Assembly (NCBI GenBank): GCA_038321865.1
Contig: JBBQFH010000001.1
Span: 1-64,000, forward strand
From: Gemmatimonadales bacterium
GTDB lineage: Bacteria; Gemmatimonadota; Gemmatimonadetes; Gemmatimonadales; GWC2-71-9
Reading direction: 5' to 3'
Length of the DNA: 64,000 bases
Of this stretch, positions 31,801 to 37,800 are shown piece by piece; within the stretch, counting starts at the first letter, position 1, and each line of letters begins with the position of its first letter. Made by a program: the position numbers.

Positions 31801-34800
31801 CACGACCAGATGACAAGAAAGACGCCGATCGGCGTCGTGACGCCCCGATGGCTCAGGAACGCACCGAGGGCAACGATCGCGTCGGTAGGCAACGGAGGAA
31901 TGACGTTTTCGACAGCGGCAAAAACGCCGAGCACCACGTAGACGGCAGCGCTCGGCAACCCGGCAAGCCACTGCAGGAGCGATTCGATCAGCGCTCCTCC
32001 AGCGTGGCCACGGCAATTACGGCCAGCCCTTCGCCCCGGCCAAGGCAACCCATGCCCTCATTGGTCTTCGCCTTGACGCCGACGTCCCCGGCCGACAGGC
32101 CGAAGACCTGCGCGAGGGCGGCGGCCATCGCGTCCACGTGTGCCGCGAGCCTCGGCTGTTCGGCGATGATGGTCACGTCAGCCTGGACCACGCGAAACCC
32201 GCGCTCCCCCACCCGTGCGGTCGCGAGGCGGAGGAGGTTCATCGAATCGGCGTTTTCCCATTGCGGATCGGAATCGGGAAAGAGGCGCCCGATGTCGCCG
32301 GCCCCCGCCGCGCCCAGGACCGCGTCAGTCACGGCATGGGCAACGGCGTCGGCATCGGAGTGTCCGGCGAGGCCAAGTGGATGGGGGATGTGCTGGCCGG
32401 CGAGAATGAGTGCCCGGCCGGCGACGAAGCGATGGGAATCGTACCCGATGCCGACGCGGCTCATGGCGATCTCACGCCGCGGCGGTGGCCGGCTCCTCGA
32501 TGAAGCTGTAGTCCTGGCGCCGGCGGCGGACGTCATATCCGGCGTCGCGAATCGACCGCTCCATCTCGGTGATGGTCGCCCGATGTGTCGTGCCGGCAGA
32601 GGAAACGACATTCTCCTCCATCATGAGGCTGCCGAAATCGTTGGCGCCGAACCGCAGCGCGACCTGACCCACCTTGAGCCCCATCGTCACCCACGACGAC
32701 TGCAGGTTCGGCACGTTGTCGCAGATGATCCGGCCCATTGCCAGCGTGCGAAGATAGGTCACCGCGTCAGTCTTGACGCTGTCGGCCATGCCGGTGCCGT
32801 CGGGTTGCAACGGCCAGCAGATGAACGCGGTGAATCCGCCCGTGCGAGCCTGGAGGTCCCGCACTCGAAACAGGTGCTCGATGCGGTCGGCGCTGCTCTC
32901 CCCCAGACCATACATCATGGTCACCGAGGTCTTCATCCCCTGGTGATGCGCCTCCTCCTGCACCCCGAGCCACTCCTCGGTCTGGGCCTTCTTCCGGGCC
33001 ACACGTGCCCGAATCTCATCCACGAGGATCTCGCCGCCGCCACCGGGAATGCTGTCCAGTCCCGCCCCGCGCAGCTCACGGATGACTTCCGCCACCGGCA
33101 AGCCGAAGCGCTGGCCAAAAAAGACTACCTCTGAAGGCGAAAACCCGTGAATGTGGATCGGGTGGTTGCGCTTGATGTAGCGCATCAGGTCGAGATACCA
33201 CTCGAACGGGATGTACGGATTGTGCCCGCCCTGCAGCAGGATCTGAACGCCGCCGATCGCCTTGCACTCGTCGATTTTCCGGCCGATCTGCTCGTAGCTC
33301 AGCACGTAGCCCTCGAGATCCTTCGGGCGGCGATAGAACGCGCAGAACTTGCAGTCCGCCGTACAGACGTTGGTATAGTTGATGTTCCGATCAATGATGT
33401 AGGTCACCACATTCTCGGGATGCTGCCGCCACCGCTCGGCGTCCGCCAGCTGGCCCAGCTCGAGCAGGCTGGCCGTCTCGTACAGCTCGACGTAATCCCG
33501 GAATTCAGGTGAGCCGCGGTCCACGACAGTCATCGAATCCCCTATGCGGCGGTGATGAACGAGAGGGAGCCATCGGGCACCAGGCCATCCTGCGCCAGGC
33601 GCCGGAAGAAGTCGGTCAGCCCCGCCAGATGGCGGTAGGAGAGGCGGTAATCCAGATCGCCGAGATAGGAACGGCACACCTCCTCGGCCACCCCGGTCGC
33701 GCTTGCGGCATCGGCCGAGAGCTCGTCGAGGTGGGCCAGCCCCCACGCGCAGGAGGCGAGGAGGCCCGCGTGCAGCTCCTGAACGACAGGCGTGGGCGCA
33801 GTCCGGCGCGCCGCCCACACGGCGAAGACGAAGGGCAAACCAGTCCAGGCCTTCCATTCAGCGCCCAGATCAATCCTGTGGGGATACACTTCGCGCGCGG
33901 TGAGCATCAGGGCGGCGTCACCAATGACCAGGACCGCGTCGTGCGGAAACTGCGCGAGTGAGGCGAGATCGCTCGCCTCGGCACGCACGGTAGCGAAGCG
34001 CGGAGCCACTCCCCAGCGGTGCCGGCAGAGCAGCTCGAGCAGCAACACGGAGGTGCGAGAGGATGCCGTGAGGAGCACCGTCCGGCCATCGAGCTCGGAT
34101 ACGGGCCGCCGGGAGAAAAGCGCCACGCTGTGCACCGGGCCATCGCAGGTGATGGCGAGATCGGGCAGCAGGTGATACGCGGCCGCATTCCGGGCATACT
34201 CGACGGCCGAGACGACGCTCACATCGAGCTCACCGGCCGCGAGCAGATCATTGAGCTCCGACGCCGTGCCGGACACCAGCTCAGCCGGCACGGACACGAT
34301 TCCGCGGTCGATCGCGCCGTAGACCGGATAGCAGTTGATCCACGCGATTCGGCCCAGCCTCATGCGGCGTGGACCACGGGCAGCGAGCGGGGCCGCTCGT
34401 TCGGCATCGGCGGCGGGGTCGGCTCGTCAAAGGTGTCGCGCACCGCACGGTACAGGCTGTCACGTTCCACCGGCCGGCGACCGGCATCGCGGATCAGCTT
34501 CACGAGCCCGAGATACGGCATGTGCATCTGGGTGCGCGCGCCGGCTTCGTGGTAGACCCGTTCATAGATCACGGTACCCTCGACATCATCGCAGCCGAAC
34601 GCCAGCGCGACCTGCGACATGAACGGCGTCACCATCGGCCAGTGCGTCTTCACGTGTGGGATGTTGTCCAGATACAGGCGGCCCACGGCGATCGCCTTGA
34701 GGTCCTCGTAGCCGGTGGTCGCGGTGCCCACCCGCCCCAGCTCCTCACCGAGCTCATTGTTTTCGGTGTGATACGCCAGGGGGATGTAGGTCAGAAACCC

Positions 34801-37800
34801 GCCGGTTTCGTCCTGCAGGGCGCGCAGCATTCCCAGGTGCTCGATCCGGTCCGCGGCGGTTTCGATGTGACCGTACAGCATCGTGCAGTTCGTGGGAATG
34901 TCGAGCTGGTGCGCCGTCCGGTGCACACGAATCCATTCCTCGCCGGTGAGCTTTCGCTCGGCGATGGTCGCGCGGACGGCGGTGCTGAACACCTCCGCCC
35001 CGCCCCCGGGAAGGCTGGTGAGCCCGGCCTCCTTCAGGGCGATGAGCACGTCGCGCTCGGTCGAGCGCTCGATCCGGGCGAGGTGGGCGATCTCGACGGC
35101 TGTCAGCGCCTTGATGTGAACGTGCGGATGGCGCTCCTTGAGACCACGAATCATGTCGGTGTAATAACTCAGCCGCAGCTTGGGATGCAGCCCGCCGACG
35201 ATGTGGAACTCGCGCGTCGGCGATCCCTCGGCCTGTTCAGCCTCGAGATACACCTCGTCGAGTGAGCGCGTGTAGGCGCCTTCCTCCTTCGGCATGCGGG
35301 CGAAGGAGCAGAAGGTGCACGTGTTCCGAAGAATGCAGACATTGGTCGGATTGAGATGCTGATTGGCGGAGAAGAATACGCGGTCGCCGTTGGCACGCCG
35401 GTTGGCGTAATCGGCCAGCATGCCGAGCCCCAGCAGGTCGCTCGTCGCGTACAGCGCGAGCCCATCCGACGCTTCGAGCCTCGTTCCGGCCAGCACCTTT
35501 TCCGCGATCGGCCGGAGGGCAGGATCGCGCAGGCGCGCTATGTCGACTTGGCCCGGCATCGTGGCTCCTTGAAGGATCCGTACCTGAGAAATCTACATGA
35601 CCGCCGCCGCCGGGGCTACGCGATCCCACGCGGAAACGCCCCTCCGCGGGCACGGAAAGGGCGGGACGAAACGACCTTCCCCGCTCCACAGCCGGCTACG
35701 TCCAGGCGCGCACGGCCAGGGTGGCATTATGGCCCCCGAACCCGAAGGAGTTGCTGATCGCCACCCGGACCGGCCGGCTCACCCTGTGATTGGGTGCCGA
35801 GTCGAGATCGCACTCCGGATCGGGCGTGAACTGGTTGATCGTCGGCGGAATCATGCTGTCCCGGCACGCCAGGAGCGAAACTCCGAATTCGAGCGCCCCT
35901 GCGGCACCGAGCAAGTGGCCCGTCATCGACTTCGTGGACCCGAACACGAGGCGGCGGGCGTGATCCCCGAAGACCGCCTTTACCGCCGCCGTCTCGGCGA
36001 TGTCGCCCTGATCGGTGGAGGTACCGTGCGCATTGACGTACCCGACATCCTCGGGATTGATCCCGCCGTCGGCCAGCGCGGCGCGGATCGCCCGCTGCGC
36101 ACCTTCGCCGGCCGGTGCCGGCGCCGTCATGTGATACGCATCCCCGCTCGCGCCATACCCCAGCACTTCACCCAGGATCACAGCACCACGCCGCTCGGCA
36201 TGCTCGAGGCTCTCGAGCATGCCCATCCCGGCGCCCTCACCAAGGACGAAGCCGTCGCGGTCCTTGTCGAACGGGCGGCTGGCGGTTTCGGGCGAGTCGT
36301 TGCGGGTCGAGAGGGCGCGCATGTTCTGGAAGCCGGCGATGGTCAGCCCCGAGATGGCCGCCTCGGCGCCGCCGCAGAGCATGGCGTCGGCCTTGCCATC
36401 CTTGATCATCGTGTAGGACTCGCCGATGGCATGAGCACTCGACGCACACGCGCTCACCGTGGCGAAATTCGGTCCCTTGGCGCCGTATCGGATGGAGACG
36501 AGGCCGGCGGCGATGTCGGGAATGAACATGGGGACGAAGAACGGGGAAACGCGGTCAGGGCCCTTGGTGAGATAGATCGAGCACTGTTCCTCGAAGGTCC
36601 GCATCCCGCCGATACCGCTGCCGATGACGACCCCGGTCCGATCGGGTGATGGAAACCTTCCCTCGAGTCCAGCCTGGGTCACGGCCTGCTGGGCCGCGCC
36701 GAGCGCGTACTGGACGAACTGATCGTACCGCTTCGCCTCCTTGCGGTCCATGTACAGCAGCGGATCGAACCCCTTGATCTCGCAGGCGAACCGCACCTGC
36801 AGCGCCGACGCATCGAACTTGGCGATCGGCGCTGCGCCGGAACGGCCGGCCAGCAGCGCGCTCCAGGTGGAATCCACGTCGTTGCCAACCGGAGTGACCA
36901 GGCCGAGTCCGGTGACGACGACGCGCTGCGCCAAGTTACTTGCCGATCTTCTGGTGGAGATAGTTCATCGCGTCGCCGACGGTGCGAAGCTTCTCCGCGT
37001 CCTCGTCGGGGATATCGATGTCGAACTCCTTCTCGAAGGCCATCACCAGCTCGACCGTGTCGAGGCTGTCCGCGCCCAGGTCCTCCATGAAGCTGGCCTC
37101 GCCGGTCAGCTTCTCGCGCTCGACGCCGAGTTCCTCGACGATGATGTCCTTGACCTTCTCTTCCACGTTGTCCATGTCGTCCTCGATGGATGATTGAGGG
37201 CCTGAGTCAGAAAACCATCCCGCCGTCGACCACGAGCACCTGCCCGGTCATGTACGCGGACAGGTCGGACGCCAGGAACAATACGGCGCCGGCGACGTCC
37301 TCGGCGCGGCCCAACCGGCCAAGGGCGATCGCCTGTAATAAGGAGGCGCGCGCCTCCTCCGGCAAGGCACTGGTCATGTCGGTGTCGATGAACCCTGGGG
37401 CCACGCAATTGGCAAGCACATTGCGGCTGGCGTACTCCTTGGCGATCGACTTGGTGAAGCCGATCAGGCCCGCCTTGCTCGCGGCGTAGTTGGCCTGTCC
37501 CTTGTTGCCGATCAGGCCGACCACGCTCGTGATGTTGATGATGCGGCCCGTCCGGCGCTTCATCATGCCCTTGATCACAGCCTTGGTGGTATGGAATGCG
37601 CCCTTGAGGTTCGCGTCGAGTACCGCATCCCAGTCCTCGCCGGAAAGCCGGAGCAGGATGTTGTCGCGAGTCAGCCCGGCATTGTTCACCAGGATGTCGA
37701 TCGGCCCCAGCCGACGCTCGATCTCCGCCACGGCGGCATCGACCTGCCCCGCGTCCGCCACGTCACACCCCACGCCGGCCACGCCATCGCCGAGCGAGGC

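Follow-up and report, generated by a model that had tools for sequence, protein, structure and literature searches.

We analysed a window of 64,000 nucleotides, positions 1 to 64,000 of contig JBBQFH010000001.1 from Gemmatimonadales bacterium GCA_038321865.1 (the source genome), and all coordinates refer to this contig. The fabF-mqnE locus contains the following features:

36936..37175, minus strand: acpP, acyl carrier protein (translation and tblastn to relatives; named from its position between fabG and fabF, with no profile scan behind the name)
35696..36934, minus strand: fabF, beta-ketoacyl-ACP synthase II (TIGR03150, 613.5 bits, over cut-off)
35560..35695, no strand: fabF-mqnE junction of 136 bp, GC-rich and folding into hairpins, the presumed former site of rnc
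34360..35559, minus strand: mqnE, aminofutalosine synthase, the downstream anchor (TIGR03700, 450.5 bits, over cut-off; synteny)
33542..34363, minus strand: mqnA-type futalosine pathway gene (PF02621, E 1.7e-70)
32472..33857, minus strand: ORF holding mqnC (TIGR03699, 454 bits on residues 119-452); the true start probably lies ~110 codons inside this ORF
31988..32611, minus strand: ORF holding ispF (TIGR00151)

The TIGR03150 and TIGR03700 matches and their coordinates confirmed the claim of an earlier note that mqnE follows fabF after 136 bp. fabF is the last gene of a yceD-plsX-fabH-fabD-fabG-acpP-fabF run, and it constitutes the upstream anchor of the lost rnc, as the gene order upstream of it is identical in relatives that keep rnc. 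On the other side, mqnE directly follows rnc in family f13 of the same class, and ispF lies directly behind fabF in some families that have neither rnc nor, at this place, the mqn genes. The 136-bp junction contained no coding remnant of rnc, and a scan of it revealed no consensus promoter or terminator. When a hidden Markov model (HMM) of the phylum's RNase III was run on 55 loci read through stops, the best E value was only 1.2.

We found no RNase III in the source genome with PF00636 (E ≤ 10) or PF14622, and no double-stranded RNA-binding domain (dsRBD) with PF00035 (E ≤ 1). The concern that a divergent enzyme escapes the profile was addressed with the HMM, built from 19 same-phylum RNase III proteins, which returned 0 matches at E ≤ 10 in the six frames of the genome in --max mode. 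The best tblastn match of the phylum RNase III (contig C9, E 0.002) was rejected as a shadow frame on the opposite strand of genes that, by eye, read like clpP and trigger factor. The source genome is 89.85% complete in 139 contigs, and the fabF-mqnE locus is internal to one of them. The PF00636 controls were positive in 8 of 14 genomes, as noted earlier; Thermus, Deinococcus and four archaea account for the six without a signal.

Gene order in rnc-keeping genomes located the site of the loss. rnc adjoins the 3' side of fabF in 19 of 20 loci, the 20th being at a contig end, in agreement with the earlier statements that sister-class rnc lies just downstream of fabF and that the gene was deleted from behind fabF. 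The order is fabF-rnc-mtnP in 8/8 f9 loci and fabF-rnc-mqnE-mqnC in 3/3 f13 loci, in which 874-993 bp separate the FabF match from the MqnE match and contain rnc. The order fabF-rnc-acyl-CoA dehydrogenase-mqnE, noted earlier for two sister-class loci, occurs in 3/3 loci of the sister-class family f10, but the closest pre-deletion order is that of f13, fabF-rnc-mqnE, and therefore only rnc needed removing. In rnc-less loci, mqnE, purE or ispF was found at most 330 bp from fabF in 16 of 20 cases.

We then surveyed the class. In families f1 to f8, rnc was absent from 379 of 379 genomes searched with PF14622, from 365 of 365 searched with a phylum alignment and, over cut-off, from 351 of 351 searched with PF00636; these three samples overlap and include single-contig genomes. 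PF00636 should catch Mini-III as well, and at E ≤ 0.1 the 351 genomes yielded only three matches, all sub-cut-off (G188, G195 and G531). All three were rejected as spurious, since they read through stop codons, do not contain the signature motif and correspond to the C-terminal helix of an unrelated protein, so that no Mini-III or stand-alone RNase III domain was found. In the first (PF14622) sample, the FabF control was positive in 399 of 401 genomes; with the many single-contig genomes and junctions intact within contigs, this establishes that the absence does not result from incomplete assembly.

In contrast to the earlier claim of a class-wide loss, two families of the class keep rnc. The gene was detected in 4/4, 31/31 and 18/18 f9 genomes (PF14622, phylum alignment and PF00636 samples, respectively) and in f13 in 3/4 (phylum alignment; the fourth genome gave no match) and 1/1 (PF00636). 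The earlier count of 0 of 42 class genomes evidently did not include f9 and f13; it does not hold for the whole class but does reflect a very large lineage without rnc. All four f9 proteins tested pass TIGR02191 (187-192 bits versus a cut-off of 166) and retain the acidic motifs ER(L/M)EFLGD and E/D-x-x-E, and the f13 RNase III is over the PF00636 cut-off. Judging from TIGR02191, the motifs, the acidic catalytic residues and a C-terminal dsRBD, the kept proteins are predicted class 1 RNase III. The sister classes mostly have RNase III, as previously stated (16/17 genomes with PF14622; the 17th, G028, also lacks a fabF match). RNase III, the usual enzyme for separating rRNA precursors, is lost in most, not all, of the class Gemmatimonadetes, whose members are soil and sediment bacteria.

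Families f1 to f8 form a clade (support 100) that is sister to f9 plus f13 (100) in an RpoB-RpoC FastTree and an RpoB IQ-TREE, from which 9 of 46 genomes without an RpoB match are omitted (including the source genome, five f9 and two f13) and in which f13 is represented by one genome, filling 45% of the concatenated columns. An RpoB insertion of ~107 columns is present in 26/26 f1-f8 genomes and 0/11 others. The RNase III tree, built without a Bacteroidota or Fibrobacterota outgroup, agrees with the species tree. The absence falls on one stem, and the kept gene has descended vertically. The two rnc-keeping families form one basal clade, probably the order JACCXV01, and f1 to f8 would correspond to Gemmatimonadales, Longimicrobiales and Palauibacterales.

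A class-wide loss could still be defended if f9 and f13 had regained rnc by transfer, or were misbinned or misclassified. Their genomes are fragmented metagenome-assembled genomes of 30-460 contigs, and the class border is a convention because one tree noted in PMC11316326 shows a smaller distance to Glassbacteria for JACCXV01 than for the other three orders. However, rnc is carried by 34 genomes from 13 genera of these families, sits at the ancestral site behind fabF in all loci inspected and has a gene tree that tracks the species tree, and both families are classified under the same class in the genome set searched. This explanation is thus very improbable and already largely refuted. We propose instead that rnc lay directly behind fabF in the phylum ancestor, and that a single clean deletion occurred on the stem of f1 to f8 (eight of ten sampled families) after the split from f9 and f13, with the 136-bp junction of the source genome as its remnant.

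Which nucleases are left? RNase E/G and RNase Y were each found in 32/32 f1-f8 genomes, and in 16/16 and 15/16 sister-class genomes, respectively; both are ancestral in the phylum and therefore their presence is no change accompanying the loss of rnc. RNase Y is kept also in Thermus and Deinococcus. YbeY was present in 5/5 genomes tested, whereas RNase J, RNase M5 and Ro60 were over cut-off in 0/5, including 4/4 rnc-less ones. Rsr has a role in Deinococcus-type rRNA processing, and neither component of that set (TROVE protein and RNase J) was over cut-off in the five genomes. The Bacillus-type set (Mini-III, RNase M5 and RNase J1) was not found either, the scope for RNase J and M5 being the same five genomes. 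The source genome contains homologues of RNase PH, RNase R/II and PNPase and an RNase AM-like protein.

A mirror-image loss was observed in f9, the larger of the rnc-keeping families. RNase Y was absent from 29 of 29 f9 genomes, and rny is deleted from the zapA-6S-rny-ymdB locus. A first impression from G321 that f9 lacks RNase E/G was rejected, since 24/29 f9 genomes have it. No sampled family lacks both RNase III and RNase Y. Tentatively, either enzyme might substitute for the other in this phylum, whose ancestor would have had both, with RNase Y opening the tRNA-free 16S-23S-5S precursor in RNase III-less bacteria. If true, bacterial rRNA maturation would have a route whose first step is not a double-strand cut.

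Of the source genome's rRNA, only ~70 nt of 16S are assembled, at the end of a contig, and all rRNA results therefore come from relatives. Among RNase III-less Gemmatimonadales, 24/25 genomes have linked 16S-23S-5S operons, and most have a single operon with a spacer of 162-387 nt and no spacer tRNA. Over all 42 rnc-less genomes examined, 27 were linked only, 2 mixed, 11 unlinked and 2 unresolved; linkage was deduced from 16S and 5S positions, with direct mapping for 22 operons. The 16S 3' fragments in G185 and G409, being isolated 135-nt copies, were not counted as linkage evidence. The spacer tRNA is missing from all 22 mapped linked operons of rnc-less genomes, and both sister-class operons have Ile and Ala tRNAs.

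These arrangements bear on the idea, found in bioRxiv 10.1101/705046, that unlinking of 16S and 23S first made RNase III dispensable, under which the linked Gemmatimonadales operons would have been re-linked later. The lack of spacer tRNAs in the 22 mapped operons is what a broken and rejoined operon would leave, f6 and f7 are unlinked in 5/6 (one unresolved) and 6/10 genomes, and G321, the sole rnc-keeping f9 genome with full rRNA genes, is unlinked. On the other hand, G321 keeps rnc, so unlinking by itself does not lead to loss, and the 27 linked-only genomes show that linkage without RNase III is viable today. Furthermore, in two orders era comes after the 5S of linked operons, but it directly follows 16S in unlinked G056 and G062, and lone 23S-5S units occupy a common second site in f4, f6 and f7; these positions fit a two-operon ancestor with later reciprocal loss at least as well. 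Since rnc-less genomes are not generally unlinked, only the historical version of the idea is left, and we consider it doubtful.

We also compared the rRNA flanks. By local complement alignment, 26/26 16S and 27/27 23S flank pairs outscored their own shuffles (5 mononucleotide shuffles per pair), and perfect pairing extended over 11-28 bp in the 16S helices and 9-22 bp in the 23S helices; the RNase III-less operons thus keep their leader-trailer helices. Duplex energies of the 16S flanks of rnc-less genomes, in 150-nt windows, were mostly no better than those of shuffles (z -2.4 to +0.9). Both 23S insertions seen resemble group I introns, which self-splice.

PMC11404451 proposes for Deinococcus that bulged leader-trailer helices ceased being RNase III substrates, so that the loss would be helix-driven. 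In our data, the 27 23S copies from rnc-less genomes indeed score lower, with a median of 42.5 and a longest perfect run of 15, than the rnc-bearing ones, with scores of 58, 60 and 78 and runs of 18, 21 and 32. However, rnc-bearing copies number only three per gene, the 16S helices show no comparable drop (median 49 without rnc; 58, 38 and 36 with it), and weaker helices may be a consequence of the loss instead of its cause. We therefore consider this origin unlikely.

The persistence of the helices, with long perfect runs, might instead mean that they are still cut, either by an RNase III of highly diverged sequence or by an unrelated double-strand nuclease acquired on the stem, and profile searches detect sequence only. 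This appears still less likely: the phylum HMM in --max mode found nothing in the source genome or at the 55 loci, that genome has no dsRBD, the three sub-cut-off PF00636 matches were spurious, and both 23S insertions look self-splicing. Moreover, pre-rRNA helices are needed for assembly even without RNase III, according to PMC11404451.

The first pre-rRNA cuts would most likely be made by RNase Y and/or RNase E/G. We lean towards a route in which the leader-trailer helices would be retained for their role in subunit assembly, and RNase Y and/or the short RNase E/G would open the precursor in single-stranded linkers, not in helices. The 3' ends would be finished by Era/YbeY together with RNase PH, the RNase R/II family and PNPase as 3' exonucleases, and the 5' ends trimmed by the RNase AM-like PHP protein. 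According to PMC8708148, rRNA in rnc mutants is processed by other RNases, and the proposed route may be the slow back-up of E. coli rnc mutants made permanent, at a cost that slowly growing cells could bear when they have one or two rRNA copies. We give a probability of about 0.8 to the overall account, which combines one stem deletion of rnc, kept pre-rRNA helices and, with less confidence, a single-strand processing route.

With the rnc-keeping sister clade, the states before and after the loss can be compared in nature. Strains of Gemmatimonas are in culture, and therefore the cutting of a tRNA-free linked precursor without RNase III, RNase J, Mini-III and M5 is directly testable. Families f1 to f8 are predicted to be unable to host elements dependent on the RNase III of their host, examples being tracrRNA-dependent CRISPR processing and excised rRNA intervening sequences. 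In the literature, we found no report of the position of the rnc loss, of the RNase Y loss in f9, of linked, tRNA-free operons in RNase III-less Gemmatimonadales, or of RNase Y separating pre-rRNA. The accessible portions of PMC3997798, PMC3071783 and PMC10469786 contain nothing on RNase III loss. The scale of the loss is under-appreciated, because a 2021 review still names D. radiodurans as the sole bacterial exception to having RNase III (PMC8708148).

The absence itself is already known: the Discussion of bioRxiv 10.1101/705046 reports RNaseIII as absent from 'Gemmatimonadetes', on the basis of PF00636 and PF14622. That report consists of one sentence, concerns complete NCBI genomes of January 2019 and ties the absence to unlinked rRNA genes, with no locus, branch or exception, whereas here two families keep rnc and Gemmatimonadales are linked in 24/25 genomes. 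The kept f9, f13 and sister-class proteins are predicted class 1 RNase III (TIGR02191) of ~260 aa with a nuclease domain and a dsRBD, which we did not find in f1 to f8. E. coli operons carry spacer tRNAs cleavable by RNase P, whereas the 22 mapped operons here have none. Null mutants of rnc in E. coli and H. pylori are viable, and other RNases mature rRNA in them without the first double-strand cuts (PMC8708148, PMC6582327); in contrast to these mutants, the RNase III-less state here occurs in nature and has become fixed in hundreds of species-level genomes. Deinococcus radiodurans and Thermus thermophilus resemble f1 to f8 in being free-living bacteria without rnc (silent controls) that have RNase Y and YbeY, and Deinococcota also keep leader-trailer helices, according to PMC11404451. 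They differ in that both species lack RNase E/G and match the RNase J model, and D. radiodurans has Ro60, while RNase E/G is present in f1 to f8, and RNase J and Ro60 were not found in the f1-f8 genomes tested. Unlike in Deinococcota, a sister clade with rnc in place fixes both the site and the branch of the loss in Gemmatimonadetes.

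The fabF locus of the window contains no RNase III gene (rnc) and reads as follows.

minus strand, gene order: yceD-plsX-fabH-fabD-fabG-acpP-fabF-mqnE-mqnA-mqnC-ispF-dedA-xerD
35696, minus strand: end of fabF
35559, minus strand: start of mqnE

The gap of 136 bp agrees with that given in an earlier note, which also held that the genome lacks RNase III. We confirmed this absence: the assembly (3.40 Mb, 139 contigs, 89.85% complete) gave no PF00636 match at E<=10 and no match to PF14622 or PF00035, and the PF00636 controls behaved as expected (8/14 positive; the 6 silent ones were Thermus, Deinococcus, and four archaea). 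A divergent RNase III might escape such generic profiles, as the note had allowed. A dedicated HMM, made from 19 of the phylum's own RNase III proteins and run unfiltered on 52,989 six-frame segments of the genome, also returned 0 matches at E<=10.

The note had extended the loss to the whole class Gemmatimonadetes; the loss is real, but its scope was misjudged. We surveyed three overlapping samples, whose counts are not additive, by families known by code, any taxon names attached to them being inferred. With PF14622 on 401 genomes of the phylum, rnc was found in 0/379 genomes of families f1-f8 (f1-f3 being placed in the window's own order by kinship label), in 4/4 of the same-class family f9, and in 16/17 of the sister-class families f10-f12. 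FabF was present in 399/401 of these genomes, one of the 2 misses being a sister-class genome also without rnc. An alignment of 18 phylum proteins, used on 401 class genomes, gave 0/365 for f1-f8, 31/31 for f9 (29/29 without the unpublished G401 and G402), and 3/4 for f13, a further family of the class. Among 371 genomes of the class with a completeness of 90% or more, PF00636 exceeded its cut-off in 0/351 for f1-f8, 18/18 for f9, and 1/1 for f13; three matches below the cut-off in this sample were noise. The unpublished G055, G095, G155, and G180 also figure in the PF14622 and FabF samples, and no claim hangs on them. Four f9 RNase III proteins passed TIGR02191 and kept the catalytic motifs. 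When an f9 protein was scanned against the GTDB contigs, 15 loci matched it at 71-100% identity, and the titles of 14 name Gemmatimonadota, Gemmatimonadetes, or Gemmatimonadales. Since f9 and f13 carry rnc, the loss extends to most, but not the whole, of the class.

The position of rnc directly 3' of fabF, claimed for the sister classes, held at 19 of 20 loci, the 20th lying at a contig end, and also at 3/3 f13 loci and 4/4 further f9 loci. The gene orders were:

f13: fabF-rnc-mqnE-mqnC-mtnP-purB
f9: fabF-rnc-mtnP-purE-purB
f10: fabF-rnc-acyl-CoA dehydrogenase-mqnE
f11/f12: fabF-rnc-(dehydrogenase)-purE

At 20 rnc-less loci from f1-f8, the gene within 330 bp of fabF was mqnE (9), ispF (4), or purE (3); mqnE lay beyond an insertion at 2 loci, and other genes followed at 2 (f8). 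Of the 30 f1 loci whose FabF most resembles that of the window, 21 have the start of mqnE within 1.5 kb. Reading 55 loci through stops revealed no rnc remnant. The immediate ancestral order is that of f13, fabF-rnc-mqnE, and therefore removal of rnc alone suffices. The f1 junction between fabF and mqnE often holds unrelated genes (among the loci listed, L035-L037, L039, L042, L045, L046, L050, L053, L056, L058, and L060), by eye sensor-kinase-like, flavin monooxygenase-like, and membrane transporter-like; the old rnc site is therefore a frequent insertion point.

We then placed the loss on a tree. Rooted on f10-f12, an RpoB+RpoC tree (FastTree, 37 genomes, 2738 columns) supported f1-f8 and f9+f13 as clades at 100 each, and an RpoB-only tree (IQ-TREE, same root) gave the same split, again at 100 and 100. 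An RpoB insertion of ∼107 aligned columns near profile position 1100 occurs in 26/26 f1-f8 genomes and in 0/11 from f9, f13, and the sister classes (loci L174-L199). The RNase III tree mirrors the species tree (f9+f13, 99; f10-f12, 95; all of these against 33 from other phyla, with no FCB outgroup, 93). A single rnc deletion on the f1-f8 stem is the simplest reading. From the tree, f5+f6 are probably Palauibacterales and f4+f7+f8 probably Longimicrobiales. The f9 and f13 assemblies measure 1.3-3.2 Mb. PMC11316326 describes four orders in the class, of which JACCXV01 is small-genomed and nearest to Glassbacteria; f9+f13 fit that description and are probably this order.

The rRNA genes of the window's genome are not assembled, so that the rRNA findings come from relatives. 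Among 42 well-assembled rnc-less genomes, 27 had only linked operons (16S-23S-5S together), 2 were mixed, 11 were unlinked (16S apart from 23S-5S), and 2 were unassigned, linkage in 7 genomes of the survey being called from a 16S-to-5S distance of 3.2-3.6 kb. Within f1-f3, 24/25 genomes were linked only. In f9, the only genome whose rRNA genes are complete has them unlinked and keeps rnc. Linked and unlinked arrangements each occur in more than one taxonomic order, so that these data fit unlinking before rnc loss as well as after it. In 22 mapped linked operons of rnc-less genomes the spacer spans 162-387 nt without tRNA; both sister-class operons (2/2) carry tRNA-Ile and tRNA-Ala inside a 547-573-nt spacer. 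The tRNA-Ile(GAT) and tRNA-Ala(TGC) genes of the window's genome are spread over three separate contigs. Other tRNA genes seen there were:

window 2253-2325: tRNA-Gly(CCC)
window 11525-11598: tRNA-Arg(CCT)
contig C47:13169-13266: selenocysteine tRNA, called by ARAGORN

Leader-trailer complementarity is kept around 16S (26/26 copies, scores 36-74) and 23S (27/27, 34-76), against shuffle means of 18-29; whole-window duplex energies of the 16S flanks were mostly uninformative. Compared with three rnc-bearing copies, the helices of rnc-less genomes were weaker for 23S and not weaker for 16S. In other bacteria era usually adjoins rnc. In the rnc-less clade it lies beside rRNA, after 5S in linked operons and directly after 16S in the unlinked G056 and G062. 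Lone 23S-5S units occupy a common second site in f4, f6, and f7. Besides a full operon lacking tRNA, G378 has a 23S-5S unit on its own and a solitary 16S with tRNA-Ile behind it (L241, L266, L267). Just upstream of such lone units in G078 and G378 lies an RNase AM-like PHP gene scoring below the RNaseRnm cut-off.

L231:1873-2787, L234:2884-3822, and homologues: era, directly behind the operon or lone 16S
L265:2263-3273 and L267: RNase AM-like PHP gene
L275:2940-4232 (G276): 23S insertion of ∼1.3 kb, group I intron match of 63 bits, LAGLIDADG ORF
L274:5500-5828 (G222): 23S insertion of 330 nt, weak group I match only (E 0.42)
L226:5767-5901, L227:5047-5181, L276:4617-4747: copies of the 16S 3' end

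The two 23S insertions share one site. The isolated 16S copies (∼135 nt, model 1388-1520; G185, G409, G387) lie mid-contig, with protein-coding DNA upstream in both cases inspected, and may have arisen by duplication of the attachment site of an element that integrates into 16S, or by misassembly.

Turning to the remaining RNases, we found RNase E/G in 75/80 genomes and in every family searched, and YbeY in 5/5 genomes tested; RNase J, RNase M5, and Ro60 exceeded their cut-offs in 0/5. The window's genome has homologues of RNase PH, RNase R/II, PNPase, and RNase AM (the last a PHP protein at contig C27:38369-39100). RNase Y was present in 32/32 f1-f8, 3/3 f13, and 15/16 sister-class genomes and in 0/29 from f9, where PF12072 likewise stayed below its cut-off (5/5 genomes). 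The genes run 6S RNA-rny-ymdB in f13 and f12. In f9, ymdB directly follows zapA and the 6S gene at 3/4 loci, another gene filling the gap of the fourth (L291-L294, from G220, G185, G103, and G321; further loci compared, L296 and L298); the 6S gene was identified by Rfam in G185 and by sequence match, judged by eye, in G103 and G321. Thus, rny was deleted from zapA-6S RNA-rny-ymdB in f9, mirroring the rnc deletion elsewhere.

Alongside the observed deletion, its branch, the kept helices, and the enzyme inventory, we propose a route of maturation. RNase Y and/or RNase E/G would open the precursor where its linkers are single-stranded, YbeY together with Era, 3' exonucleases, and the PHP protein would finish the ends, and the leader-trailer helices would be retained for assembly. 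We give this route slightly better than even odds (about 0.55). A specific role of RNase Y in opening the precursor seems doubtful, and the mirror pattern consists of two independent losses only.

The absence of RNase III is already in print: a preprint (bioRxiv 10.1101/705046) describes RNaseIII as wholly absent from Deinococcus-Thermus and Gemmatimonadetes and ties this to unlinked rRNA genes. PMC8708148 names D. radiodurans as the only exception to RNase III presence. A distribution figure in PMC3071783 may show the same gap. Our search of the open-access literature returned no report of an rnc-keeping clade, of the locus of loss, or of the RNase Y mirror. What the present analysis adds is the precise branch and genomic site of the loss, the sister clade that kept the gene, the mirrored loss of RNase Y, and linked operons without spacer tRNA. 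Leader-trailer helices are described in all phyla as required independently of RNase III (PMC11404451), and rRNA maturation without RNase III is described in H. pylori (PMC6582327).
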